Below are positions 12,274 to 58,577 of a stretch of 64,000 nucleotides of DNA, in pieces. The DNA comes from an uncultured Alphaproteobacteria bacterium (GTDB taxonomy: Bacteria > Pseudomonadota > Alphaproteobacteria > CACIAM-22H2). The stretch is from assembly GCA_963748455.1 (NCBI GenBank), contig CAVVJD010000014.1:445993-509992 (forward strand), read 5' to 3'. The notes under the pieces were generated by a model, which ran no database searches, was not told the DNA's origin, and was given only the letters and a program-made list of their open reading frames with translations. Both the position numbers and the translations under genes were made by a program. Positions within the stretch are counted from its first letter, which is position 1, and each line of letters begins with the position of its first letter.

Positions 12274-12344
12274 TCCGTCACCGGTTCGGGCTAATTCCCG
12301 GACCCTGCCATGCCGCTTCCCTTCCCGCTTCAGGAGGACGGTCT

Positions 12345-12992
12345 ATGCCCAAGCTTCGCGTTCACGGCTTTTCCATTTCCCTCGACGGCTACGGCGCCGG
12401 CCCCAACCAGAGCCTCGACAACCCGCTCGGCGTCGGCGGTGAGGCGCTGCATGAATGGACCGTTGCCACGTGCACCTTTCAGAAAATGGTCGGCAAAGAC
12501 AGTGGTACAACGGGGACAGATGACGATTTCACAGCGCGTGGGTTTGAAGACATCGGCGCCTGGATCCTGGGCCGCAACATGTTCGGGCCAGTGCGCGGAC
12601 CGTGGCCCGACGAGAGATGGAAAGGCTGGTGGGGCGACAATCCGCCTTATCACGTGCCCGTCTTCGTGCTGACCCATCACGCCAGGGCGCCGATCACCAT
12701 GGAGGGCGGCACCGTTTTCCATTTCGTGACCGACGGCATCCACGCCGCGCTGAAGCGCGCCAGCGAGGCCGCGAAAGGTCAGGATATCCGGCTGGGCGGC
12801 GGGGCTGCGACCATCCAGCAATATCTGCGCGCGGGTCTCATCGACGAGATGCATCTGGCGATCTCGCCGATCCTCCTGGGATCAGGCGAGGCGCTGTTTG
12901 CGGGCATCGACGCCCACACGCTCGGCTATCGATGCATCGAACACGTTGCCACGGCGAGCGCGACGCATGTCGTTCTCGCCATGCGCGGATGA
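12345..12992 (+). CDS. Dihydrofolate-reductase-family (RibD C-terminal domain) protein.
   Basis: MPKLRVHGFSISLDGYGAG... and GGGAATIQQYLRAGLIDEMHLAISPILLGSG are typical of the RibD_C/DHFR-like family. Good RBS AGGAGG. Confidence 0.75.
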   Translation: MPKLRVHGFSISLDGYGAGPNQSLDNPLGVGGEALHEWTVATCTFQKMVGKDSGTTGTDDDFTARGFEDIGAWILGRNMFGPVRGPWPDERWKGWWGDNPPYHVPVFVLTHHARAPITMEGGTVFHFVTDGIHAALKRASEAAKGQDIRLGGGAATIQQYLRAGLIDEMHLAISPILLGSGEALFAGIDAHTLGYRCIEHVATASATHVVLAMRG

Positions 12993-12998
12993 AGGCTC

Positions 12999-14214
12999 TT
13001 CAGCGCGTCGCATTCTTGACAAGAGGGCACTTGCTCTCGGACAGCGGCCATACGGTTTCCTCGGGCGCGATCTTGCGCACGATCTCGAAGTAGTCCCACG
13101 GATACTTGGACTCCGCCGGTTTCTTCACCCGCGCGAGATACATCGTGCGCGTGACACGGCCGTCCTCGCGGATGCGCGCGTTCTCCGAAAAGATGTCATC
13201 GATCGGATCGCGCGCATCGCGGCCGCAACCTTGTCGGCATCGTCGGTGCCGGCCTTGGCGATCGCCTTGAGATAGTGGCGCACCGCGCCATAGACGCCCG
13301 CGTGCAGCATCGAGGGCATGATGCCGGTCTTGGCCATGAACTGCTTCGACCAGGCGCGTGTCGCGTCATTCGTGTCCCAATAGGACGCGGTGGTGAGATA
13401 CGTGCCCTGCGCGGCGCTAAGCCCGAGCGCGTGCACGTCCTGGAGGAAAAAGATCAGCGCCGCGAGGCTTTGTCCGCCTTGCACGAGGCCGAACTCGGCC
13501 GCCTGCTTCATCGCGGTGATGGTGTCGTTGCCCGCATTGGCGATGCCGATCACCTTGGCGCCGGACGATTGCGCCCGGAGCAGGAACGAGGAGAAATCCG
13601 CGGTGTTGAGCGGGTGGCGCGCGGCGCCCAGCACCTGGCCCCCCGCTGCGGTGATGACTTTGGTCGCATCGCTTCTGGAGCTGATGCCCGAACGCATAGT
13701 CCGAGGCGAGGATGAACCACGACGTTCCGCCCGCCTTCACCACTGCCGAGGCCGTCCCGTGCGACACCGCATAGGTGTCGTATGTCCAATGGAAGCCGTA
13801 GGGCGAGCACTGCTCGTTCGTAAGCGCGGTCGTGCCCGCGCCGGAATAGAGCACGATCCGCTTCTGCTCGCGCGCAAGATTCTGGATCGCGAGCGCCACG
13901 CCCGAATTCGGCACGTCGACAATCGCATCGACGCCTTCGACATCGAGCCAGCGCCGCGCGATCGAGAGGCCGACATCGGCCTTGTGCAGATGATCCGCCG
14001 AGATCACCTGCACCGGCTTGCCGAGCACCATGCCGCCGACTTCCTGGATCGCCATCTCGGCCGCGACGACCGATCCCTTGCCGGTGATGTCGGCGGTCAC
14101 GCCCGCAAGGTCGGTCAGGACGCCGATCTTGACGACATCGCCGCTGATCTGGGCCTGTGCCGCGATGGGAAGCATTGCGGCGAACAGGGCCGCGCCGAAC
14201 ATGTTCAGCCTCAT
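12999..14214 (-). pseudogene. Branched-chain amino acid ABC transporter substrate-binding protein (LivK-like), two frameshifts (near 13210 and 13700).
   Basis: Three consecutive minus-strand frames encode the N-terminal (signal + VKIGVLTDLAGV...), middle (IGIANAGNDTITAMKQAAEFGL...) and C-terminal (RIREDGRVTRTMYLARVKKPAESKYPWDYFEIV) parts of one LIV-binding protein. A single missing G in gcgcgcgatcc restores the last junction. Confidence 0.7.
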
Positions 14215-14245: not shown

Positions 14246-15193
14246 TCAGCAGTTGTTCGCGTCGAGCCAGGCGAGGATCATCGCGGCGAGGTCGTCGCTG
14301 TTGTCCTCGATCATCATCATGTGGCCATTGCCGTGGACGCCGCGGTCGGGCAGCCACGTGAAATCGGCGCCGAGATAGTTGGCGGTGGCTCCATCGACCG
14401 CGCGTGGATGGCGCGGGTCGTGGTCGCCCGTGACGATCAGCACGCGGTGGCCGCTGAGGTTCTTGGGATCGCGGATCTTCAGTCCACGTCCACCGATATT
14501 GAAGCGCTCGTTCAGGATACGCGCGCTCTCCGGCACGATCGAGCGGCAATAGTTTTCAAACGTATGCCGGGGGAAGCGCGGTGCGTTCGCCCAAAAGCTT
14601 GCCGCGAATTCTGTGCCCAGCCAGACCGGCTTGTCTTCGACGGAATAGACTGGGCAGCCCGCGCCCGCGTCGTCGCGCAGCGCCAGGATGGCGGCCGGAT
14701 CGTCTGGCAGGTCTCTCAACAGGTTCGCCGGCGGGCCGGGCGCGATGCCGATAACCGCTGCCACGAGGTCGGGGCGTTGCTCCGTCATCCACCACGCCAT
14801 CGGGCCGCTCGCCGAATGCGCGAGCAGTACCGCGGGTCCGATCTCCTCAAGAAGAGCGAGGAGCGAGGCGGCGACATCCGCGGCCCCAAGCTTCGGAAAG
14901 TCCGGACGCATGGGCGAGCGGCCATGGCCGGGCCAATCGGGCACAAACACGTCGCGGCCGCTTGCCGCGAAACGCGGCGCCCAGCCAGGCCGAAGGTCCG
15001 GGGTCGCCATATAGCAGGTGCCCGTATGGCCCCCGCCGTGCACCATCACGACCGGCGTCTTGTTCGCGATGTCTCCACGCGCGCGCACATGATCCACATA
15101 GATCGGATGGGCGTCCGTTCCGGAATATAGACACAGTGGCGCATCCTCGGGCGATGCGCGCAGGCGCCCATGCCAAGCCGGCACGGCATCCAT
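14246..15193 (-). CDS. Alpha/beta-hydrolase fold protein.
   Basis: VVMVHGGGHTG ... LLAHSASGPMAW (GxSxG nucleophile elbow) ... catalytic His near the C-terminus. Confidence 0.8.
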   Translation of the reverse strand: MDAVPAWHGRLRASPEDAPLCLYSGTDAHPIYVDHVRARGDIANKTPVVMVHGGGHTGTCYMATPDLRPGWAPRFAASGRDVFVPDWPGHGRSPMRPDFPKLGAADVAASLLALLEEIGPAVLLAHSASGPMAWWMTEQRPDLVAAVIGIAPGPPANLLRDLPDDPAAILALRDDAGAGCPVYSVEDKPVWLGTEFAASFWANAPRFPRHTFENYCRSIVPESARILNERFNIGGRGLKIRDPKNLSGHRVLIVTGDHDPRHPRAVDGATANYLGADFTWLPDRGVHGNGHMMMIEDNSDDLAAMILAWLDANNC

Positions 15194-15286: not shown

Positions 15287-15817
15287 ATGAGACTATCTCG
15301 GAAAGCGAAGAAAACCGCGTCCACGCCAGACGCGCGGAAAAGCACGGCGAACGAAGTCGCCGGCGTGCTCAACGGCACGGAGATCAAGATCGCCTACAAG
15401 ATGGGCTATGTGCTGAACTTCTACCGGGAACCGTCGTTCCGAAAGATCGAAATGGAGCTCGGCCTGACACGGCCCGAGATCGTCACGCTGATCTTCCTGA
15501 ATTTCCGCGAGGGCGTGACCGCAAGCGACATCTGCGAGTTCACCGGTCACCTCAAGGCCAATATCAGCCGCGGGATCATTGCGCTGGAAAACAAGAAACT
15601 GTTGCGCCGTGAGGCTGACCCAGCCGACAACCGGCGCCAGCACCTGTTCATCACGCCGGCCGGCCGCGCCCTCTATGCGCAGTACATCCCGGCCTTGCGC
15701 GAGCGCGAGCGCGCAATGCTGGCGTGCCTCACGCGATCCGAGTGCAAGGCGTTCGAGCGCCTGCTCGACAAGCTCGCCGGCCACGTGCCGATCTGGGCGG
15801 CACCCAGCGAGCTGTGA
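15287..15817 (+). CDS. MarR-family transcriptional regulator.
   Basis: Winged-HTH region TRPEIVTLIFLNFREGVTASDICEFTGHLKANISRGIIALENKKLLRRE. Confidence 0.8.
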   Translation: MRLSRKAKKTASTPDARKSTANEVAGVLNGTEIKIAYKMGYVLNFYREPSFRKIEMELGLTRPEIVTLIFLNFREGVTASDICEFTGHLKANISRGIIALENKKLLRREADPADNRRQHLFITPAGRALYAQYIPALRERERAMLACLTRSECKAFERLLDKLAGHVPIWAAPSEL

Positions 15818-15887: not shown

Positions 15888-15975
15888 TCAGCCCGTGGCC
15901 GATGCCGATGCGGCGCGCGCCACGAGGAAGGCCGCAATCAGCAGCGGCGCCAGGCACTCGATCGGTGCCACACAC
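15888..15975 (-). pseudogene. Remnant: 3'-terminal about 88 bp (last about 29 codons) of a GAF-domain gene, paralogous to the 3' end of the intact GAF gene at 20461..20961.
   Basis: Encodes ...EECVAPIECLAPLLIAAFLVARAASASATG*, versus ...EEHVAPIERLAPLLIPAFLVARAASSSTRR* in the intact gene. Nucleotide identity is about 80% over the block, with no similarity beyond it. Confidence 0.75.
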
Positions 15976-15991
15976 TCCTCACGCCTCCGCT

Positions 15992-17632
15992 TCACTCCGG
16001 TATCCCGGCTCTGCGCAGCCCCTCTATGTAAAGCTCCAGTTGCTCCGGGTTTTTTACATAGAAGAGGCGCTTGCGCGCGAAGTTGCAGGCGAAATCCGGC
16101 TTGCGCTGCAGCAGGTCGCCGATTGCCACGCGCAAGTCTTCCGAACATTCCAAGTGCCCCAGGGCCGCGACACGGTGGGCGAACGCCCAATAATGCGCAT
16201 TGGGCACCCGCGTGGCTTTCTGGGCCCATTCGCTGGCCAGCTCGAATTCCCGCGCAAAAATGTGCGCAAGCGCTCCATAAGAGTAGAACGCCCAACGCAA
16301 GGGATCATAAGGGCTCAGCTCGATCGCCCTCTGGAAATAGGGGATCGCCTCGCTGATGCGCCCCTCGTAAACCAGCGAGTCGCCGAGACCGCAATAGCTC
16401 GCCGCAAGACACGGGTTCAGCTCGACCGCCGTTTCCAGCTCGGCTAGCGCGTCTCCATATGCCTTCCCGGCAAGCAGCGCGCGCCCGTACATGAACCGGA
16501 TCAATCCATCCTGGTCGTCGAGCTCGACGCCTTTCCTCCCAATCGCAATGGCCTCGGTGAGCCGCTCTTCGTTCGGCTCGGCCTCGAAATAAACCATGCT
16601 CAGGACGATCGCATAGGACAGGTACCCATAAGCCTCAGCCAGATTGGGGTCGAGTTCCATGGCGCGGCGAAACAGCCGCTGCGCTTCCAGATTGTCCGCA
16701 GGAGTTGATTTGTAAAAGTGTTTCGTCCCAAGCCGGAAAAAGTCCCACGCGTGCAGCGCCGGCACAGCTTTTCGCTCGACGCGCTGCCGCTCGGCCGCGC
16801 CAATCTCGGGCTCGATCCGCGCCGCGATCGTGGTTGTGATTTCGTCTTGTACCTGGAAGAGATCCTGCAGATCGCGGTCGTACCGCTCCGCCCAGAGTTG
16901 CCGGCCGCCTTCGGTCTCCACCAGCTGCGCGGTCATGCGCACGCGCTGCCCGATCTTGCGCACACTGCCCTCGACCAGGTACTCGGCGCCGAGCGTCAAG
17001 CCGACGCGGCGCACATCGCCCCCGCCGCCCTTGAAAGCGAAGCTCGAATTGCGGGCGATCACCACCAGGGACCGGTACTTGGACAAAGCGGTAATGATGT
17101 CTTCCGCGATTCCGTCAGAGAAATATTCTTGCTCTGGATCGCCGCTTAAATTGTTGAACGGCAGTACCGCAACGGACGGCCGTCCGCTCCAATTTAGGGG
17201 AGCGCCTGAGTTGACGGCGCCGAGAGCTTTGTCCGCGACGGCGTCGCCCCCCGCTCCGGGAATAGGTTCAGCGGACACTGCTCGAGTTTGTTCTGGCGAG
17301 CGGCCATTTCCATCTGTCTCAACTCCGCTGCGAACCTCGCCCACAAATCGGAAGCCCTTTCGGGCATAGGTCTTGATCAGAGACTGCTGCTCGCCGCTGT
17401 CCCCCACAGCCTTGCGGGCCGCGGTGATCCGACTGGTCAGGGTTGAATCCGATATGATCCGGCCATCCCAGACCGCCGCGATCAGGTCGTCCTTGGTCAC
17501 CACGCGTTCTCGGTTCTGCACCAAAAAGAGCAGCACATCGAACACCTGCGGCTCGAGCGAGATCGGCTCCTCGCCCCGCCGAAGCTCTCGCCTTCGGCCG
17601 TCCAGGACATAGCCACCAAAACAGAGTTGCAA
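15992..17632 (-). CDS. Winged-helix (OmpR/CadC-type) DNA-binding protein fused to a TolB-N-like domain and TPR repeats.
   Basis: N-terminal trans_reg_C-like region (LEPQVFDVLLFLVQNRERVVTKDDLIAAVWDG...KGFRFV), central VAVLPFNNLSGDPEQEYFSDGIAEDIIT domain, C-terminal TPR-like helices. Confidence 0.8.
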   Translation of the reverse strand: MQLCFGGYVLDGRRRELRRGEEPISLEPQVFDVLLFLVQNRERVVTKDDLIAAVWDGRIISDSTLTSRITAARKAVGDSGEQQSLIKTYARKGFRFVGEVRSGVETDGNGRSPEQTRAVSAEPIPGAGGDAVADKALGAVNSGAPLNWSGRPSVAVLPFNNLSGDPEQEYFSDGIAEDIITALSKYRSLVVIARNSSFAFKGGGGDVRRVGLTLGAEYLVEGSVRKIGQRVRMTAQLVETEGGRQLWAERYDRDLQDLFQVQDEITTTIAARIEPEIGAAERQRVERKAVPALHAWDFFRLGTKHFYKSTPADNLEAQRLFRRAMELDPNLAEAYGYLSYAIVLSMVYFEAEPNEERLTEAIAIGRKGVELDDQDGLIRFMYGRALLAGKAYGDALAELETAVELNPCLAASYCGLGDSLVYEGRISEAIPYFQRAIELSPYDPLRWAFYSYGALAHIFAREFELASEWAQKATRVPNAHYWAFAHRVAALGHLECSEDLRVAIGDLLQRKPDFACNFARKRLFYVKNPEQLELYIEGLRRAGIPE

Positions 17633-17894
17633 GCACCCCTCCTCAGGGCCGCAAGGCAGTTCTCGGGCGAAAATCAGGCCCGTCTCGCGAGCAAATCAAG
17701 CGTCTCTTCAGGCTTTCGGCCCGGCGCTGCGGCATCCTGCCTCGGATCGGTCGCGCGTCGCGTGACCGGCTTCACATGACTGGCGCTGAAGGGAGGATAC
17801 CATGTTCGATGCCCACAGTCCGGCCCGCCTCAAGAACACCGTTATCGATGTCGAATTCCATTGTAGGCAGCCAAGGGCGCTCGGCTGCGCGGCG

Positions 17895-18413
17895 ATGTGG
17901 GACGCGCTCAAACCGCTAGCCGCGGCGTTCAGAATCGGGTTGAGCACCTTGGCCCTCGGACTCGCCATTGCGGCCACCACTTCCGCTCCGGAAGCACGGG
18001 CCCAGGCCGCTGATGGGCATACCATTCTGACCGCCGGCGACATCAAATGGTCGCCCGCCCCGCCCTCATTACCTGCGGGGGCGCAGGCGGCCGTGCTGTA
18101 TGGAGACCCGGGCAAAGACGGTCTATTTGCCCTTCGGCTCAGGCTCCCCAAGGGTTACGCCATCGCGCCGCATACGCACCCAAAACCAGAAATCGTCACC
18201 GTAATTTCGGGGACGTTCCGGCTGGGTATGGGGGAGCGTGCCGACGCAAGCAAGGGCCAGCCTCTTACGGCAGGCAGTTTCTTTGCACTTCACCCAGGCA
18301 TGGCGCATTTCGCCTTCGCCGACGAGGATACGGTCATCCAGCTCAACAGCGCCGGGCCGTGGACACTCGTTTACGTCAATCCAAACGACGATCCGCGCAA
18401 GAAGACCCAGTAG
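17895..18413 (+). CDS. Secreted cupin-domain protein.
   Basis: Signal peptide (LAAAFRIGLSTLALGLAIAATTSAPEARA) followed by the cupin motif G..AIAPHTHPKPEIVTVISG. Confidence 0.75.
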   Translation: MWDALKPLAAAFRIGLSTLALGLAIAATTSAPEARAQAADGHTILTAGDIKWSPAPPSLPAGAQAAVLYGDPGKDGLFALRLRLPKGYAIAPHTHPKPEIVTVISGTFRLGMGERADASKGQPLTAGSFFALHPGMAHFAFADEDTVIQLNSAGPWTLVYVNPNDDPRKKTQ

Positions 18414-18504
18414 ACACATCCGCGAAGCTGCCCGTCTGCAGTTCATCGGGTCGAGCGGCGCTGTCCATATCGCCTCAACAAGCAATTCAAACAGGAGAAA
18501 CCAC

Positions 18505-18873
18505 GTGCCTGAATCCTCACGAGAGCTGGTCGTACTTATGACACATGGCGCCGATCATGAACTCTCCTCGGTCGCCTTCACGATCGCGAATGGCGGCATG
18601 ACGGCGGGCCTAAGGGTTTCCGCATTCTTGACCAGCGCCGCGGTCGATCTGGTGCGAAAGCGCGCCATCGACAGCACGGTCGTGCCCCCGCTCGAACCGC
18701 TCGCATCCTTGGTGAAGGACTTTCTCGCGCGCGGCGGCCGCCTGTGGGCATGCACACCTTGCGTGAAGGCCCGCGGCTACGAGCAGAGCGACCTCATCGA
18801 GGGCGTGGAGATCGCCGGGTCCAGCAAAATACACGAGCTGATCAAGGCCGGAGCCGCGACGCTCAGCTTTTGA
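18505..18873 (+). CDS. DsrE/DsrF-like (YchN-fold) sulfur-carrier family protein.
   Basis: About 122 aa. GTG start 6 nt after AGGAG. DsrE-like core with conserved Cys context LWACTPC. Confidence 0.65.
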   Translation: MPESSRELVVLMTHGADHELSSVAFTIANGGMTAGLRVSAFLTSAAVDLVRKRAIDSTVVPPLEPLASLVKDFLARGGRLWACTPCVKARGYEQSDLIEGVEIAGSSKIHELIKAGAATLSF

Positions 18874-18960
18874 CGCTCGAATTGCCGCCTCACGGCTCCA
18901 AAGGCGTGCGGCACTCACGGACGGGAAATCCACCCAGATTCACAATAAGGAGCTCCGACA

Positions 18961-19737
18961 ATGACCACGATCTCGGCTTTCGATCCAAAGGAACTCGAAT
19001 CCAAGGTGAAAGCGATGTACCGCAGCGTCGCCGAGGACCCGCACGGAGAGTTCCACTTCGAGATGGGCCGCGCGATGGCAGAACGTCTCGGCTACGTACC
19101 AGCAGACCTCGACCGCATACCCGCCGAGGCGATCGAGTCATTTGCCGGCGTCGGCTACTACTTTCATCTCGCCGATCTCAAGCCGGGCGAAATGGTCGTC
19201 GATCTCGGTAGCGGATCGGGGATGGACACGTTCATTGCCGCGCTGAAAGTGGGCTCCCGCGGAAAAGTCACCGGCGTCGATATGACGGACGAGCAGCGAG
19301 CAAAGGCAGAGCGGCTGCGGGACCGGGACGGCTTCCTCAATGTGACTTACGTCAAGGGCTATATCGAGGAAGCTCCCCTGCCGGACGGCCTCGCCGACGT
19401 TGTGATCAGCAACGGCGTCATCAATCTCGCCACGGACAAATCGAAAGTGTTCCGCGAAGCCGGGCGGCTGCTGAAATCAGGCGGCCGGTTCGCGATCTCC
19501 GATATCGTGACGGAGGTGCAGCTGCCCGAAAGCATCGTGTGCAATTCAACCCTCTGGGCCGCCTGCATCGGAGGCGCCGCGCAGCAGGACAATTATCGCC
19601 AGATGATCGAGGCGGCCGGACTACGTCTGGTCAAGGTGGAAGACAATCCGCAATATCAGTTCATCTCCGACAACGCCAAGGGCGCGAGCAAAAAGTTCGG
19701 CGTGAAGAGCATCTCGTTGCTGGCCGTCAAACCTTAA
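18961..19737 (+). CDS. ArsM/UbiE-like class I SAM-dependent methyltransferase; ArsM homolog lacking the As(III)-binding cysteines.
   Basis: Strong resemblance to arsenite methyltransferase cores (GEMVVDLGSGSGMD...VDMTDEQ...VISNGVINL...GGRFAISDIV). The ArsM cysteines are replaced (NGVINL instead of NCVINL) and there is no N-terminal CC pair. Confidence 0.7.
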   Translation: MTTISAFDPKELESKVKAMYRSVAEDPHGEFHFEMGRAMAERLGYVPADLDRIPAEAIESFAGVGYYFHLADLKPGEMVVDLGSGSGMDTFIAALKVGSRGKVTGVDMTDEQRAKAERLRDRDGFLNVTYVKGYIEEAPLPDGLADVVISNGVINLATDKSKVFREAGRLLKSGGRFAISDIVTEVQLPESIVCNSTLWAACIGGAAQQDNYRQMIEAAGLRLVKVEDNPQYQFISDNAKGASKKFGVKSISLLAVKP

Positions 19738-19752
19738 AGGATCGAAGGAAAA

Positions 19753-20439
19753 ATGCGCCAGGCGGAGACGACAGACGTCAACTTGATGCGGTTGTCGTCG
19801 GATCGAGGCCGAATGACCCTACCCGGCTTTTTCGAAGGGACTGGCATGCCCGATCCCGGTTGGTGGGAGGCACTTTTTCCCGATCCGGCCCGGGTGATCC
19901 GCGACGTCGGGGTCGCGCCGGGCATGAGGGTTGTGGACCTATGTTCCGGTGACGGCTGGTTCACGTTGCAATTGTCAAAGATTGCGCGAGCGGTAACCGC
20001 CATCGACATAGACGGCAAGATGCTTGAGAGGGCACGCGTCCGGCTGACCGAAATCGGCCTTACCAACTGCGTCTTCGTTGAGGCCAATGCTTACGACGTT
20101 GCCAAGGTCGTGCACGATCGTGTTGACCATGTGTTTCTGGCAAACGCATTCCACGGGGTGCCAGACAAGTCGCGGCTTGCACACGCCGTCCACGACGTTC
20201 TGAAGCCTGGCGGGACGTTTGCCGTCGTGAATTGGCACGCCCGGCCACGCGAGGAAACGACAATTCTAGGCGAACCCAGGGGGCCAGCGACGGAAATGCG
20301 GATGCGACCTGAAGAAACGATCGCAGCTATGCAGTCGAGCGGGCTTACATTTATGAGGCAAATCGAGGTCCCACCCTATCACTACGCGGTGGTGTTCAGG
20401 CGCAGGCATCCTTGCTTGAGAAGTATGGGAATCTTGTGA
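19753..20439 (+). CDS. Class I SAM-dependent methyltransferase.
   Basis: Motif I VVDLCSGDGWF and post-I acidic residue AIDID. Sits 15 nt after the previous methyltransferase gene, so likely co-transcribed. Confidence 0.75.
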   Translation: MRQAETTDVNLMRLSSDRGRMTLPGFFEGTGMPDPGWWEALFPDPARVIRDVGVAPGMRVVDLCSGDGWFTLQLSKIARAVTAIDIDGKMLERARVRLTEIGLTNCVFVEANAYDVAKVVHDRVDHVFLANAFHGVPDKSRLAHAVHDVLKPGGTFAVVNWHARPREETTILGEPRGPATEMRMRPEETIAAMQSSGLTFMRQIEVPPYHYAVVFRRRHPCLRSMGIL

Positions 20440-20460
20440 GCGAAAAATTCTGACGAGGGC

Positions 20461-20961
20461 TCAGCGCCTTGTCGAAGATGACGCGGCGCGAGCAACAAGG
20501 AAAGCCGGAATCAGCAGCGGCGCCAGGCGCTCGATCGGCGCCACATGCTCCTCGCGATAGTGGAATTCCGGGGCGAGCAGGTTCGCGGTGCCGATGACCT
20601 GGCCGTCATAGACCACCGGCACGTTGATGACCGAGCCCAGGCCCATGCTCTCGATCAGCGCGTGGTCGAAGAAGGCCCAGCGGATCGCCGCCTTGTCGCG
20701 GCCGAGGAAGGATTTCTGGCCTTTCATCACATGCTCGCCCCAGGGCGTGGGGCCCATCGGCTTGCGGCCGAAGACCGGATATTCCGCCGGGCGGTTGGAA
20801 TAGATGCGCGCCACTTCCTGGCCGTCGACATAGAGGAGCGTGAAAAGCTCGTGCCCAACGAGCCGCTTGGCCGTGGCGTCGAGGGCGCGGAAGAACGTCT
20901 CGGGCTGACCGGGCTCAGCCAACAGGCGCGACAAGGCGGCAAAGTCTTCAGGCATGGACAC
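20461..20961 (-). CDS. GAF-domain protein.
   Basis: About 165 aa single GAF-like domain. Its last about 29 codons are duplicated (diverged) at 15888..15975. Confidence 0.75.
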   Translation of the reverse strand: MSMPEDFAALSRLLAEPGQPETFFRALDATAKRLVGHELFTLLYVDGQEVARIYSNRPAEYPVFGRKPMGPTPWGEHVMKGQKSFLGRDKAAIRWAFFDHALIESMGLGSVINVPVVYDGQVIGTANLLAPEFHYREEHVAPIERLAPLLIPAFLVARAASSSTRR

Positions 20962-20968
20962 TCTCTTG

Positions 20969-21884
20969 TCAGGAATTGGAGGAAGCGGGCGTCGGTGCTT
21001 TGGGGATGCGCTCCGGCAGGAGACCTTGCGGGCGCAGATGCAGCACCAGGATGAGCGCCAGGCCGATCAGGATCTCGCGCAAGGCGGCGAGTTGCACGGG
21101 CTGGAGGCCGGGCAGCCACTCCGTAGCGAAACGCGTTGCCTCGAGGAAGATCACGACGATGTAAGCCCCGAACACGGCGCCGCTCGGGCGCCCGACGCCG
21201 CCGGCGGTGACCGCGAGGAAGATATAGATCGTGATCAGCGGCTGGAAATGATCGGGTGAGACATAGGACTGGAAATGCGCGTAGAGCGCGCCGGCCAGCG
21301 CCGCAATCGCCGCCGACAGCGCGAAAGCCTGCCATTTGAAGCGCAGCACCGGCTTGCCGGCGAAGGCGGCGAGCTGCTGATCCTCGCGGATCGCCTTCAT
21401 CGCGCGGCCATAGGGGGATCGGTCGAGCCGGCGCAGCAGCAGCCAGACCAGCACGACGATCGCCGTCACCAGAGCGAGATAGAACAGATTGAAGCCCTGC
21501 AGGCCGATCTGCGGCCTTGAAGGGCGCCTTGATGCCGGAGATGCCGTCCGAGCCCTTGGTCAGCCAGCGCTCGTTGAGCGCGATCAGGCGGATCACCTCG
21601 GCAAAGCCGAGGGTCACGATGGCCAGATAATCGTCGCGCAGGCGCAGCGTCGCGAAGGTGACGCAGAGCCCGACGACGGCGCCGACGACGAGGGCCGCGC
21701 CCCAGCCGAGCAGAACCGGCGCGCCCGCACCAGTCGCGATCGCGGAGGCATAGGCGCCGACGGCGAAGAAGCCAGCGAGGCCAAGATTGACCAAGCCCAC
21801 ACCACCCCAAATCAAATTGAGGCTGAGCGCCAGCAGCGCGTAGATGCCGCAGATCGTCAGGGTGAAAATCGCGTAGGACAGCAT
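20969..21884 (-). pseudogene. livM: Branched-chain amino acid ABC permease LivM-like, frameshift near 21500.
   Basis: N-terminal part (MLSYAIFTLTICGIYALLALSLNLIWGGVG...) and C-terminal part (TAIVVLVWLLLRRL...LHLRPQGLLPERIP) are in different frames. The junction reads IKAPFKA|PQIGLQGFNLFYLA after a 1-nt correction. Confidence 0.7.
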
Positions 21885-22747
21885 CAGGCCGCCCGCTCGC
21901 CGAGGATGCCGCGCGGGCGGAAGGTCAGCATGATCAGGATAGCGACGAAGCCGACCGCGGTTCGATAGGTGGCGGGCACGGCGATCAGCGCCAGCTCTTC
22001 CGCCACGCCCAGCGCGAGTGCCCCGACCACAGCGCCGGGGATCGAGCCTAGGCCGCCGAGCACGGCCGCCGCGAAGACCGACAGCAGCACGCGATAGCCG
22101 GTCAGCGGATCGATCGAGGTGTCGAGGCCGATCAGCACGCCGCCGATGCCGGCGAGGCCGGCGCCGAGAAAGACGGTGACGATGGCGATGCGGGCCGGAT
22201 CGATGCCCTTCAGCCGCGCCAAATCGGGATTGTCGGCGACGGCGCGCATCGCCTTGCCGAAGCGGGTGTAGAACAGGAAACGCGAACATCGCGGCCATGA
22301 TCGCGACCGCGAGGCCGAGACTCTGCAATTGCTGCGGCCCGATGCGCAGCTCGCCGAAGCGCAGATCGCGCAGCAGCGGCAAATCGTAACCCTTCATGTC
22401 GTTGCCGAAGACAAAGCGCACGATGTTCTCCAGCACGAGGTTGAGCGCGATCGAGGCGATGGCGACGATCAAGGCCCCGCTCCCGCGCAGCCGGCGCAAC
22501 GCCGTCTCCTCCGCGCCCACGCCGACGAACCCGGCGATTGCAAACGCGACCAGCAAGGCCGGAACGACGGCCAGGCCCAGGCTCGTATTGGCCCACCAGG
22601 CGGCGAAGGCGCCGATGGTGGCGTAGGACGCGATGGCGAAGTTGGGATAGCGCAGCACCGCGAAAATCGCGGTGAAGCCGATGGCCGGGACAGCGATCAG
22701 CGTCCCGGCCATCACGCCGTTGATCAGCGCCTGCAGCAGCAAAGTCA
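21884..22747 (-). pseudogene. livH: Branched-chain amino acid ABC permease LivH-like, frameshift near 22265.
   Basis: N-terminal part (VTLLLQALINGVMAGTLIAVPAIGFTAIFAVL...) and C-terminal part (FGKAMRAVADNPDLARLKGIDP...TFRPRGILGERAA) are in different frames. Stop overlaps the livM ATG. Confidence 0.7.
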
Positions 22748-22767: not shown

Positions 22768-23980
22768 TCAGGCGATCTTGACGAACGCGATCTTGCCCCC
22801 TTGCACCTGCTCGTAGCGGAACTTGCAATCGCTGATGTCGCCGATGTCGGTGAAATCGCAGGGGCCGCTGGCGCCGTCGTAATCGACCGCCTGCTTGGCG
22901 GCGATCGCCTTGAGCCCGTCGACGGCATTGTCGATCTTGGCGCCGCCCGGCGCCTGGCTCACCTTACGGATATTGTCCTTGATGGCGCTGCCCGAGGCAT
23001 CCCCGGCCACGGCGATCGCCATCAGCACGAGATTGATGTGGTCGTAGATCTGCGTGGTGTAGGGATCGGGCGAGGCCACGCCGATCATCTTGACCAGCCG
23101 GTCATAGGCCTTCGAGCCTTCCGCCGGCGAGGGCGAGATCGTGAAGGTCTTGTCGACGACCTCGGCCGGCACGCTTTCGACCAGCTTCTGGTTGACGGAA
23201 TAGCCGAAGGCGATCTTCGTGCCCGGCGAAGCCGGCGCGGAACAGGTCTTTCAGCATCACGGCCGTGTCCGTGGTGTAGCCGCCGAGCACGACCGTATCG
23301 GGCTTGAAGCGCAGCAGCTCGTCGATCTCGGTGCGGTAGGCCGGCTTCTTGTCGTCGTAGATCAACGACGCGGTCTCGCCGCCGCCCTTCTTCATCGCCT
23401 CGGTGATGTTGTCGAACTGGCTCTTGGCGAACGGTGTTTGCGGCGAGAGGAAGAAGACGCGCTTGGCGCCCTGGGCCAGCGCGAACTCGCCGAATTTGCG
23501 GCCCTGCAGCGTGGTGTTGGGCTGCGTGCGGACGAGATAGCCCTGATGCGGCAGCAAGGTGATCGAATCAGCGCCCGAGACGGTGCAGAGGAAGGTCTTC
23601 GATTCCCAGCACAGCGGTGCGACCGCTGTCGTCACCGACGAGGCCCAGGTGCCGAGAATGGCCGAGACCTTGTCGACGTCGATGAGCTTGCGCGCGGCGC
23701 GCACGCCCGCTTCCGGATTGGTCTGGTCATCCTCGGAGATCAGCTCGACCTTGCGGCCGAGCACGCCGCCGGCCGCGTTGACCTCGTCCACCACGGCCTT
23801 GACCGCCTTCACCATGACCGGGCCATAGGGGCCACCCGAGCCGGTAAGCGGCGTCAGCGTGCCGATTTTGATCGGAGCACCTTGCGCGAGACCGCGCATC
23901 GGCATTGTGGAAACTCCGGCAAGGGCCGCGGCCCCGCCCAGCAGGAGGCGGCGATTGAGTGTCAGGTCGGTCATGGTCAT
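22768..23980 (-). pseudogene. LIV-type ABC transporter substrate-binding protein, frameshift near 23215.
   Basis: Signal peptide plus GAPIKIGTLTPLTGSGGPYG... in one frame; ...KIAFGYSVNQKLVESVPAEVVDKTFTISPSP...FRYEQVQGGKIAFVKIA in another. Removing one G from gccgggcacgaag restores AGTKIAFGY. Confidence 0.7.
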
Positions 23981-57040: not shown

Positions 57041-57850
57041 CTATGCGGGATCCCAGGCCACGGGGGGCGTGCGCTTGGGCTGCGAGCCGGGAGACGGCTG
57101 CGGGAAGATCAGCGACAGCGCCGCGTGATGGGCGATGTGGCCCGTCTTGTGGTGATGCTCCTGGTGGATGTGGCCGTAAAACACCGTCACGTGCTCGAAG
57201 GGCATCAACAACACGACCGCCGCGGCGCCGTCTTTCGTCGCCCAATCCCATTGCGGATAGAGATCGAAGAGCGGCCGGTGGGCGAGCACCACGATCGGCG
57301 TTTCCCGATCCAGCTGCGCGAGGTCGGATTTGAGCCAGGCCAGTTGCTCGTCGCCGATCGCCGCGGCCGGATCGGAAACGTTGTCGAGCGCAATGAAGTG
57401 AATGCCCTTGTGGTCGAAGGTGTAGTGGGTCTTGCCGAAGAACTCCTGGTAGGCAACGCCGCCGTCGAGCGCCGCATCGTGCTCGCCCGGCATGAAGCGC
57501 AGCGTCTTCACCTTGAGCTCGGCGACGATGGCGCGAAATTCGGCCATGCGCTTGCGCCGCTCGGCGGCATCGTCGGTGGTGTGCGTCAGATCGCCGGTGA
57601 AAACGATGAAATCCGGTTGCTGCGCCAGGCCGTTCACCGCCGCGACCGCCTTTTTGAGCGTGTTGGCGGCATCGGGGTTGGGCGGGCCCCTGAAGCCCCA
57701 ATGCGTGTCGGTGAGCTGAAGGAAGAAAAAATCCTGCGTTGCCGTCTTGGCCTGCGCGAAACGGTGCGGCCCGGCGAGGCCGGAGGCGAAGGCCACCCCA
57801 CCCAGCCCGGCCAGCCTGGCGAAGTCGCGGCGATCGATCTTGAGGGTCAT
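57041..57850 (-). CDS. Tat-secreted metallophosphoesterase (calcineurin-like).
   Basis: Twin-arginine signal DRRDFARLAGLGGVA. Metallophosphatase motifs LTDTHW, VFTGDLTH, LAHRPL..., YGHIHQEHH. Confidence 0.8.
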   Translation of the reverse strand: MTLKIDRRDFARLAGLGGVAFASGLAGPHRFAQAKTATQDFFFLQLTDTHWGFRGPPNPDAANTLKKAVAAVNGLAQQPDFIVFTGDLTHTTDDAAERRKRMAEFRAIVAELKVKTLRFMPGEHDAALDGGVAYQEFFGKTHYTFDHKGIHFIALDNVSDPAAAIGDEQLAWLKSDLAQLDRETPIVVLAHRPLFDLYPQWDWATKDGAAAVVLLMPFEHVTVFYGHIHQEHHHKTGHIAHHAALSLIFPQPSPGSQPKRTPPVAWDPA

Positions 57851-58052
57851 CGTGATCTCCCTTGGCGTGCATGAACTCGCACCGGCCAAGACCCAAGGCC
57901 GGCCGCTTTTATTCACGCGCGGCCATGAGATTTTTCCGGGAATAAAAACAAAGGTTCGGCGGTATTGTGCAGTCAGGACCCGCGAGCGCGGACCGTCCAG
58001 CGCGAAGGACACGCCTTTGGGCGACAACGACAGAACCCGGCGGTTCGAGGCG

Positions 58053-58577
58053 ATGGCACTGCCGCATCTCGATGCGGCCTATAACCTGGCGCGCTGGCTG
58101 ACGCGCGCCGACCAGGATGCGCGCGACGTGGTGCAGGATGCTTATTTGCGGGCGTTTCAGTTCTTCGACGGGTTCAAGGGCGGCGACGGCCGCGCCTGGC
58201 TGCTGACGATTGTGCGCAACACGGCCTTCAACTGGCTCAAGCGCAACCGCAAGAGCGCGATCGAGACGGTGTTCGACGAAGCCATGCATGGCGGCGCTAG
58301 CGTGAGCGCGATCGGTCCCGCACCGGCGGCCAATCCGGAGACACTGCTGTTGCAGCGCGCGGATTCAGAGGCGATCGATCGCGCCATCGCTGACCTGCCT
58401 TTGCCGTTTCGCGAGGCGATCGTTCTGCGCGAATTGGAGGAGCTCTCGTACGCCGAGATTGCCGAGATTGCCGGCGTGCCGATCGGAACCGTGATGTCGC
58501 GCCTGGCGCGCGCGCGCGAGTTGTTGCGCCGCGCCCTGACCGACGGGTCCAACCGGGAGCGCCGCCATGGCGGATGA
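58053..58577 (+). CDS. ECF (sigma-70 group IV) RNA polymerase sigma factor, start uncertain.
   Basis: Region 2 (ARDVVQDAYLRAFQFF) and region 4 (LSYAEIAEIAGVPIGTVMSRLARARELLR). Confidence 0.8.
   Translation: MALPHLDAAYNLARWLTRADQDARDVVQDAYLRAFQFFDGFKGGDGRAWLLTIVRNTAFNWLKRNRKSAIETVFDEAMHGGASVSAIGPAPAANPETLLLQRADSEAIDRAIADLPLPFREAIVLRELEELSYAEIAEIAGVPIGTVMSRLARARELLRRALTDGSNRERRHGG

Follow-up and report, generated by a model that had tools for sequence, protein, structure and literature searches.

An ArsM-derived methyltransferase linked to sulfur-relay proteins in an alphaproteobacterial gene cassette, and its possible role in sulfur methylation

In arsenite methyltransferases (ArsM; AS3MT in humans), the arsenic atom is bound by Cys174 and Cys224 next to the methyl group of S-adenosylmethionine (SAM), which methylates nucleophiles. 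Sulfane sulfur is oxidized to sulfite or thiosulfate by BigR-Blh in Xylella and Agrobacterium and by the cst operon (CstR-CstA-CstB) of Staphylococcus aureus, and the sulfur-carrying TusA-DsrE relays (DsrEFH, TusBCD, DsrE3/TusA) have DsrC, MnmA and sHdr as their known acceptors. Sulfur can also be methylated. H2S and methanethiol are substrates of the methyltransferases MddH, MddM1 and MddM2; expression of MddM genes rises in response to H2S, methanethiol and oxidative stress, and MddH is located next to genes for metal resistance (PMC11445057, PMC12904073). Mammalian TPMT detoxifies reactive sulfur species through methylation (PMC13089183). Here we describe a locus in a 64,000-nucleotide stretch of DNA from an uncultured alphaproteobacterium (contig CAVVJD010000014.1, positions 445,993 to 509,992; hereafter the window), where an ArsM-like methyltransferase, MT1, is encoded with a cupin, a DsrE/YchN-like protein and a second methyltransferase, MT2, next to a divergent regulator gene. 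Judged from sequence and gene context, MT1 belongs to an uncharacterized, widespread sister group of ArsM that is linked to sulfur-relay proteins, and it most likely acts on reactive sulfur (or selenium) rather than on arsenic.

The ArsM-like core of MT1 and its cysteines

A preliminary description of the window assigned MT1 (18961..19737, + strand; 258 aa) an ArsM-like methyltransferase core, and structural comparison agrees. The best PDB matches of MT1 are CmArsM, CrArsM and human AS3MT (E 1e-26 to 3e-28), and the top 13 Foldseek PDB matches of its AlphaFold2 model (predicted local distance difference test score, pLDDT, 93.4) are all ArsM or AS3MT, with TM-scores (query) of 0.59-0.73. With CmArsM (PDB 4FR0, 4FSD, 6CX6) and human AS3MT (8XT7), it has fold and SAM motif in common at about 30-34% identity, and the NxVINL and WxxCxxGA motifs are still discernible in it, whereas its C-terminal part is shorter, the protein having 258 aa against about 320-380 aa in ArsM/AS3MT. 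The SAM motif reads 'vvdlgsgsgmd' in MT1 and 'ildlgsgsgrd' in 8XT7, and its glycines G83, G85 and G87 each occur in at least 97% of the 84 orthologues (58-100% identity, across phyla) in which conservation was scored.

The arsenic ligands tell a different story. Cys72 of CmArsM is replaced by Val64 in MT1, which has FAGVG where ArsM has xGCG (w-G-C-G-n in the CrArsM row), and Cys174 is replaced by Gly152, with NGVINL for NCVINL; both replacements are found in 84/84 orthologues. Cys44 has no counterpart in MT1. Only Cys224 is retained, as Cys202 in the sequence LWAACIGGA and again in 84/84 orthologues, which leaves MT1 with one of the four canonical cysteines. The protein has just two cysteines in all, C194 and C202, and none N-terminal of residue 194; C194, a new position relative to ArsM, is present in 80/84 orthologues. 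In a further 15, more distant members (38-62% identity), C202 is still invariant and C194 is not, and on this comparison the C202-type thiol is the most conserved feature of the MT1 clade. The exchange of NCVINL for NGVINL and the lack of an N-terminal cysteine pair had been noted in the preliminary description and are upheld by the structure alignments, but the label 'Cys-less' given to the protein has to be withdrawn in view of C202 and C194.

These substitutions are not scattered. Across 150 cluster representatives the three ligand positions covary as V/G/C or C/C/C, and a distance tree of 97 full-length domains gathers the canonical C/C/C sequences into a clade of 38 that is free of other types. 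MT1 is a descendant of ArsM that has kept the SAM site and C202 and whose two other As(III) ligand positions are now Val and Gly. Because ArsM surveys demand at least three of the four conserved cysteines (PMC5552862), it falls outside ArsM by that standard, and it scores 221.1 bits on the NCBIfam ArsM model (NF008823), under the cut-off of 263. The suggestion that arsenite is an unlikely substrate is supported by the absence of two of the three As(III) ligands, by this score and by the absence of recurrent ars genes nearby, as described below.

The group is broad. A protein search with MT1 returned at least 8,000 candidates, all with E <= 1e-10, of which the best 120, all at least 88% identical to MT1, were recovered from soil metagenomes; when one genome per species was scanned for the pattern, at least 599 stretches were returned, and at least 598 of these encode a relative. 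The nearest homologues carry the names Xanthobacteraceae, Pseudolabrys and Rhizobiales. The best 80 relatives (58-86% identity) come from Alpha-, Beta- and Gammaproteobacteria, Myxococcota, Acidobacteriota, Gemmatimonadota, Bacteroidota and Actinomycetota, and also from Haloarchaea, Methanosarcinales and one Pacearchaeote. Such high identity across domains points to horizontal spread together with strong constraint. The archaeal orthologues (L057 from Pacearchaeota, L068, L070, L082, and L089 from a Haladaptatus megaplasmid) are 58-62% identical to the window MT1, and matches in PLSDB lie on replicons of 0.36-1.6 Mb, that is, megaplasmids or secondary replicons; together, these archaeal orthologues and large replicons suggest inter-domain transfer. 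Cultured carriers include Aromatoleum tolulyticum ATCC 51758, A. evansii KB740, Chelativorans xinjiangense, Halomonas sp. HK25 and Halalkalicoccus paucihalophilus DSM 24557.

Sulfur-relay and thiol-redox genes around MT1

Gene neighborhoods were compared across 83 loci by GC3-guided gene calling and clustering, with phmmer rescue over all open reading frames (ORFs) and with Pfam and NCBIfam checks of identity. Clustering of stop-to-stop ORFs was abandoned because, where the DNA is rich in GC, it gave false 'families' of antisense and alternative-frame ORFs. A DsrE/YchN-like CxxC protein is encoded within 1.5 kb of MT1 in 27/83 loci, always on the same strand and in many phyla, and in 21-22 of them it lies within 300 nt. 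Within the same 1.5 kb are found genes for an ECF sigma factor (24/83 loci) and a zf-HC2 anti-sigma factor (22/83), which are best matched by SigH (TIGR02947, 129 bits) and RsrA (TIGR03988, 55.5 bits against 62.5), both under cut-off; for an ArsR-rhodanese fusion regulator (18/83, rising to 25 within 5 kb); for an MBL hydrolase whose best models are GloB and the sulfur dioxygenase Blh (16/83, and 23 within 5 kb); and for DUF4395 (9/83), TusA (8/83, three of them fused to MT1), a cupin (8/83), TlpA (6/83), DsbD_N (6/83) and OsmC (5/83). YeeE-like membrane proteins recur as well. Overall, at least one sulfur-relay or thiol-redox neighbor lies within 1.5 kb in 63/83 loci, and 31/83 have, within 2.5 kb, a second class I methyltransferase, which in many cases is a V/G/C paralogue that ends in a MerC-like membrane tail. 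Databases also hold fusions of MT1-like domains with TusA (P0243, P0337), with a DsbA-like thioredoxin domain, with MerC and with a weak HMA domain.

The sulfur-carrier link that was proposed for the window thus extends to other genomes, resting on the CxxC DsrE/YchN-like genes, the eight TusA loci and the two database fusions to TusA. Arsenic genes, which are typical though not obligatory company for arsM, do not follow the same pattern: no ars resistance family (arsC, arsB/acr3 or arsH) recurs in the neighbor clusters or in a Pfam census of 129 further neighbors, and the one adjacent ArsR-type regulator that was read, at L065, has a rhodanese domain and lacks the CVC motif for As(III) sensing. 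The gene content recalls that of BigR-Blh and cst: ArsR-type regulators with a sulfur-sensing module, Blh/GloB-like MBL proteins, rhodanese, TusA, DsrE and YeeE-like proteins are likewise found beside MT1 orthologues; in contrast to those systems, a methyltransferase is added or substituted, and the window itself has only the DsrE-like gene of that tool-kit.

Particular gene orders recur at these loci. In Proteobacteria (L038, L043, L051, L052, L056, L005, L009, L012, others, and L090, which is Chelatococcus pCO-6), an optional cupin and an MT1-like gene are followed by an ECF sigma factor, an RsrA-like zf-HC2 anti-sigma factor and a second V/G/C paralogue, often with a MerC-like C-terminal membrane domain of ~150 aa; PGAP annotates the Chelatococcus series as cupin-MT-sigma-zfHC2-MT. 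Another order, mostly in Bacteroidota, is Crp-type regulator, MT1, TusA, CxxC DsrE and MFS. TusA is a free protein of 78 aa at L042, L048, L058 and L063 and is fused to the C-terminus of MT1 at L032 (a Candidatus Dadabacteria metagenome-assembled genome), L072 and L073; its motif in these loci is 'GMAC(V/A)NLTP' and not the canonical 'CPxP'. Haloarchaeal orthologues lie in an OsmC-MT operon, annotated as such by PGAP in Haladaptatus, where DUF1059 is directly upstream.

The window's own carrier candidate is encoded at 18505..18873 (+ strand; 122 aa). Its GTG start at 18505 follows an AGGAG Shine-Dalgarno sequence, and close homologues are all 122 aa long. It matches Pfam DsrE (PF02635) with 57.8 bits against a cut-off of 22.7, and its AlphaFold2 model (pLDDT 86.9) is matched in Foldseek by 3pnx, 2qs7 and 3mc3 and then by YchN (1jx7), DsrEFH (2hy5) and TusBCD (2d1p). 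A profile search gave 51 bits for 3mc3 and 43 bits for Escherichia coli YchN, in which 'CKTC' is aligned to the 'CTPC' of the window protein; an enoyl-CoA hydratase match from a single-sequence PDB search was set aside as chance once the profile and fold searches had given the real relatives. The two cysteines, C83 and C86, are invariant in 20/20 aligned MT1-adjacent homologues, and CxxC is present in 27/28 rows of a second set, the sole exception being a truncated ORF. In the model, C83 closes the strand formed by residues 79-83 and is followed by the helix 84-90, so that it occupies the strand-helix junction where the active-site cysteine of DsrE/TusD is found; it aligns with a cysteine of both 3mc3 and YchN, and the fold match of residues 9-95 to residues 5-90 of DsrE (2hy5_A) would put it near chain residue 78.

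The likeness to the TusA-DsrE relays and to YchN thus covers the fold and the position of the cysteine, and in Bacteroidota MT1 loci TusA itself is the adjacent or fused partner. The differences are equally clear. DsrE and TusD have a single cysteine where the window protein has CxxC, as in YchN; instead of a DsrEFH/TusBCD-type trio there is a single DsrE-like gene, with no DsrF/H-like gene adjacent in the window or in related loci; and the acceptor here would be a methyltransferase.

Candidate substrates and a possible mechanism

The reading that we prefer, with a little less than even confidence, is that the MT1 cassette carries out a non-oxidative methylation of sulfur in the form of a persulfide, sulfide or thiol. 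From the observed gene set, folds, residue pattern, separation from ArsM and conserved neighborhoods, we infer a substrate, a series of chemical steps, their products and an operator. The regulator would bind a direct repeat at 17672-17700 and control an operon of a periplasmic metal-cupin (as an accessory), the CxxC protein, MT1 and MT2. The overall role of the operon would be disposal without oxidation, in which reactive sulfane sulfur, sulfide or a small thiol is methylated. Persulfide sulfur would pass from the DsrE/YchN-like carrier, or from TusA in other phyla, to C202, which would bring the terminal sulfur roughly to the position of arsenic in ArsM. SAM-dependent methylation would then yield Cys-S-S-CH3, from which C194 and/or the CxxC of the carrier may free methanethiol through thiol-disulfide exchange, and MT2, or the second methyltransferase in other lineages, would convert methanethiol to dimethylsulfide (DMS). 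Such a mechanism agrees with the carriers and fusions found with MT1, with regulators of thiol stress and with a pair of methyltransferases that recurs. The preliminary description had already suggested methylation of a persulfide, a selenide or a small thiol with volatile products, and all the data are compatible with this proposed chemistry. The narrower proposal, that MT1 is the founding member of a relay-fed 'persulfide methyltransferase' family that releases methanethiol from an active-site cysteine, is a tentative one that we consider rather doubtful.

The proposed type of reaction has precedents. SAM-dependent methylation of sulfide and methanethiol as detoxification is what MddH, MddM1, MddM2 and MddA perform, but these enzymes belong to the UbiE, UbiG or ICMT families and act on free H2S or methanethiol, and DsrE or TusA partners have not been reported for them (PMC11445057, PMC12904073); MT1, in contrast, is ArsM-derived and has a conserved active-site cysteine. 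MT2 resembles MddH and MddM2 in size and in its UbiE-type annotation. The concept of inactivating reactive sulfur or H2S by SAM-dependent methylation also applies to mammalian TPMT and TMT1A/B (METTL7A/B), which are eukaryotic, belong to other methyltransferase families and have no carrier proteins (PMC13089183; bioRxiv 10.1101/2020.03.06.979542).

Several observations weigh against sulfur methylation. The DsrE gene is present in only about a third of MT1 loci, and 13/83 loci have none of the neighbors listed above. The MerC-like membrane tail, found in 13 loci, and the weak HMA domain point to soft metals and not to sulfur, and the C194/C202 pair could bind a metalloid. A redox partner would account equally well for the CxxC motif, for the existence of UxxC selenoproteins among DsrE relatives (PMC2398784) and for the old name 'predicted peroxiredoxin'. 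The neighbor gene calls are home-made and imperfect (the DsrE gene in L001 was mis-called), and the neighbor counts have as their sole internal control the concentration of these genes next to MT1, without a genome-wide background. Finally, a literature search found no study of the MT1 clade and no characterized member.

Selenium is the main rival to sulfur, although we consider it unlikely. In a detoxification of selenium or tellurium, MT1 and then MT2 would methylate selenide or a Cys-S-Se(-) species to methylselenol and dimethylselenide, or to the tellurium analogues, with the selenium carried as a selenotrisulfide by the CxxC protein or by TusA/YedF-like proteins. The chemistry and the carrier proteins would be the same as for sulfur, the TusA-like neighbors weakly match the selenium-linked YedF model (24.8 bits), and the thiol-stress regulators would answer selenite or tellurite. 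Both the DsrE-like and the ArsM-like families have selenoprotein members (PMC2398784, PMC9312934), and MT1 scores 161-181 bits on the NCBIfam selenoprotein ArsM models. Yet selD, selA/B and selU do not recur among the neighbors, selA being found near one locus only, whereas the recurrent rhodanese-ArsR, GloB/Blh-like MBL and YeeE genes are hallmarks of sulfide and persulfide handling, and the very high abundance of the group in ordinary soils suits sulfur better than a trace element.

Alternatively, MT1 may be a thiol-stress methyltransferase for a small organic compound, for example a thiol (of low molecular weight or xenobiotic) or some other nucleophilic metabolite, with DsrE/YchN, TlpA and OsmC as redox partners; to this, too, we give a low probability. 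The SigR/RsrA-like pairs and the OsmC, TlpA and DsbD_N neighbors are general thiol-redox genes, a CxxC at the N-terminus of a helix resembles an oxidoreductase motif, relatives of MT2 also stand alone outside any sulfur context, and, to our knowledge, a sulfur-carrier role of E. coli YchN is unproven. An organic substrate is harder to reconcile with the conserved cysteine that serves as an As-S ligand in ArsM, the covalent TusA fusions and the rhodanese regulators, all of which point to a cysteine-bound inorganic atom, and no metabolite-specific biosynthetic genes recur.

It seems very unlikely that MT1 is still a metalloid methyltransferase, acting on As(III), MAs(III) or Sb(III) at a site that either is rebuilt with C194 and C202 or receives its missing thiols in trans, from the CxxC of a DsrE/YchN-like metallochaperone. 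In CmArsM, two thiolates are enough for MAs(III), and MT1 has two conserved cysteines left; its nearest solved and curated relatives are all ArsM/AS3MT, the MerC-like and HMA-like fusions hint at soft-metal handling, and many members of the group are labeled arsenite methyltransferase by JGI. Against this stand the replacement of Cys72 and Cys174 in every orthologue, the survey standard of at least three in four cysteines, the score under the NCBIfam cut-off, and the lack of recurrent arsC, arsB/acr3 or arsH and of a CVC motif in the L065 regulator. PGAP, moreover, names the haloarchaeal MT1 orthologues 'methyltransferase domain-containing protein' and uses 'arsenite methyltransferase' only for matches of <=42% identity, and completion in trans cannot be general since most loci are missing the DsrE gene. 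MT1 differs from ArsM/AS3MT in the loss of Cys44 and Cys72, the change of Cys174 to Gly, the new Cys194, its separate grouping and its lack of ars context, while it retains the thiol equivalent to Cys224.

Extremely unlikely, in our estimate, is that MT1 caps or regulates a partner protein, be it DsrE/YchN, TusA or an anti-sigma factor, by methylating one of its cysteines, rather than serving in metabolism. Small cysteine proteins are encoded close to MT1 or fused to it, and the conserved cysteines may lie in a predicted interface region. But a carrier would be wasted if its S-methylation were stoichiometric and irreversible, partners of this kind are missing from many loci, and the second methyltransferase in 31/83 loci suits a sequential methylation of small molecules better. 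Mercury methylation, suggested by the MerC and HMA fusions, was rejected on chemical grounds, because the electrophilic methyl group of SAM goes to a nucleophile and Hg(II) is none.

Organization, spread and significance of the cassette

Five intact genes occupy 15,992-20,439 of the window. The four on the + strand plausibly form an operon; they are intact ORFs and, as first described, divergent from the regulator gene, whose product has Trans_reg_C and TPR domains. The spacing needs some correction. The gap of 87 nt between the DsrE-like gene and MT1 stands, that between the cupin and the DsrE-like gene is 91 nt and not 92 because the latter starts at GTG 18505, and that between MT1 and MT2 is the 15 nt given before if MT2 starts at ATG 19753 and ~75 nt if it starts at ATG 19813. 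An Rfam search and a promoter and terminator scan of 15-21.5 kb found no RNA element and nothing above shuffled expectation, and a riboswitch or attenuator was accordingly dropped from consideration; the intergenic gaps have no terminator-like site on the + strand, with one weak site (19854) inside the 5' region of MT2.

The regulator (15992..17632, - strand; 546 aa) combines an N-terminal OmpR/CadC-type winged helix (Pfam Trans_reg_C, 54.3 bits) with TPR repeats in its C-terminal half, where several TPR families match. It is not a full-length CadC, matching the NCBIfam CadC model NF007540 over residues 16-107 only, with 61.9 bits against a cut-off of 400. In the region between regulator and operon, the direct repeat AATCAGG-N15-AATCAAG (17672..17700) is a candidate operator for this winged-helix/TPR regulator: both heptamers are invariant in 6/6 aligned loci, in which the coding DNA is only ~73-95% identical, and a scan of both strands of the 64-kb window found the bipartite motif at no second place.

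The optional first gene encodes an apparently secreted metal-cupin (17895..18413, + strand; 172 aa), which by direct reading has an HxHxxxE metal motif, a distal His and a signal-peptide-like N-terminus. It matches Pfam DUF4437 with 34.8 bits, and Cupin_2 and Cupin_7 slightly under cut-off. The start at 17895 agrees with homologues, whose signal peptide follows directly; an alternative ATG at 17802, with a strong Shine-Dalgarno sequence, would give 203 aa. The GGGAGGA Shine-Dalgarno sequence and ATG 17802 (window 17788-17894) are kept as DNA in L084 and L085, and the same start region aligns with the Shine-Dalgarno sequence and start codon of the DsrE gene in L001-L003. At the protein level, L085 does not preserve the 31-codon extension, which could be a leader or a relic. 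The preliminary description had listed the cupin as part of the operon, but it is not a core member: it is absent from L001-L003 and from L085, where it was lost, given that a remnant of its 5' region can still be aligned. Cupins with signal-peptide-like N-termini do, however, adjoin MT1 orthologues in eight distant loci (L005, L009, L012, L038, L044, L051, L052, L056), which include Halomonas and Hyphomicrobiales, and also in Chelatococcus pCO-6 according to PGAP.

MT2 (19753 or 19813..20439, + strand; 228 or 208 aa) is a small class I SAM methyltransferase that matches Pfam Methyltransf_25, _11, _31 and Ubie_methyltran, but no NCBIfam model above cut-off; its nearest solved structure, 3dh0, is of unknown function. 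ATG 19753 has a Shine-Dalgarno sequence, whereas conservation among homologues begins at ATG 19813; most homologues have ~200-208 aa and a few are longer, including the closest, P0391, with 228 aa. The criterion for MddH is >45% identity to a validated MddH (PMC11445057). MddH is reported to be 37% identical to E. coli UbiE, whereas MT2 reaches only 44 bits on the UbiE model TIGR01934, which weakly argues against its being an MddH. MT2 follows MT1 in L001-L003, L084 and L085, the same loci in which the regulator is kept and divergent from the operon. Both genes occur only in the Bradyrhizobium-like lineage, and a homologue of MT2 stands alone beside recA in Pseudorhodoplanes sinuspersici while another abuts a transposase gene in L086.

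A neighborhood conserved in no other genome had been named beforehand as a refutation of the preliminary description. This clearly does not apply: the regulator-DsrE-MT1-MT2 cassette was found in five flanking contexts (L001, L002, L003, L085 and, together with the cupin, L084). In those loci, DNA homology with the window begins at ~15983-16002, the 3' end of the regulator gene, and reaches only to MT1-MT2 (19737-20406), and in L003 integrase and recombinase genes lie beside the cassette. On this comparison the locus is a regulated, portable module.

The block had also been described as an insertion bracketed by a GAF repeat. The bracket is real: the left copy (15888..15983, - strand) is a piece of the 3' end of a GAF gene and matches 20461-20556 with 81% identity over 96 nt, and the two copies exactly bound 15984-20460. 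As the unit of mobility, the bracketed insertion does not hold. The right copy is the last 96 nt of an intact GAF-domain gene (20461..20961, - strand; Pfam GAF_2, 43.2 bits), which is convergent with MT2, occupies this site in no locus other than the window and L084, and is flank outside the conserved cassette; the left copy translates as a GAF C-terminus (29 bits in phmmer). The nearest relative is L084, with 95% identity over 15983-22729; it contains the cassette together with the right GAF gene but no left repeat. A target-site duplication was rejected, considering the identity of only 81%, the position of the left copy in 3 kb that L084 lacks, and the occurrence of the cassette elsewhere without a GAF gene; the repeat is best read as a local rearrangement between GAF paralogues.

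The flanks show further differences. Within the 3-kb stretch absent from L084 (12978-15982) lie genes for an alpha/beta hydrolase (14246-15193) and a MarR regulator (15287-15817), along with fragments of a substrate-binding protein gene and of the 3' end of a GAF gene, and in L084 the RibD_C gene (window 12335-12977) abuts the regulator instead. On the other side (20975-22730, - strand), two ABC permease genes of BPD_transp_2 type are each split over two frames, with breaks near 21489-21529 and 22239-22279, relative to intact genes in L084, and are either pseudogenes or indel errors of the assembly. Genes for periplasmic substrate-binding proteins on the - strand look broken or truncated as well: 22768-23980 is split into ORFs 23102-23980 and 22768-23172, and 13417-14214 encodes a fragment of 265 aa, which would fit the same frameshift pattern. 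In L001 and L085, two independent contexts, genes for membrane methyltransferases of the PEMT/ICMT family, which includes MddA (L001 10421-10894, L085 12445-13107), and for CsoR-type (Trns_repr_metal) regulators (L001 23-277, L085 10255-10530) lie ~3-7 kb from the cassette, along with CDF, HMA and YHS metal-handling genes. The sole other match in the window to one of the neighbor families is an ECF-type sigma factor ORF (57720-58574, + strand), with no MT1-like gene near it.

Our findings bear on how arsenic and sulfur genes are read in environmental DNA. Surveys count arsM homologues. Since active site and gene context both speak against arsenic, estimates of arsM abundance that skip the cysteine test could be too high, and some of what KO- or JGI-style annotation records as 'arsM' in soil metagenomes would, if our reading is true, come from genes that have nothing to do with arsenic. 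The production of methanethiol and DMS in soils and sediments is only partly accounted for by MddA, MddH and MddM, and a relay-fed methyltransferase would add a source of both and give the TusA/DsrE relay a new kind of acceptor. For enzymology, MT1 would represent an arsenic-binding site that has been re-purposed with one ligand cysteine kept. Cultured carriers make the sulfur reading directly testable; if it is true, the MT1 group would be an unrecognized, phylogenetically broad and soil-abundant source of methanethiol and dimethylsulfide, as well as a non-oxidative route for the detoxification of reactive sulfur.

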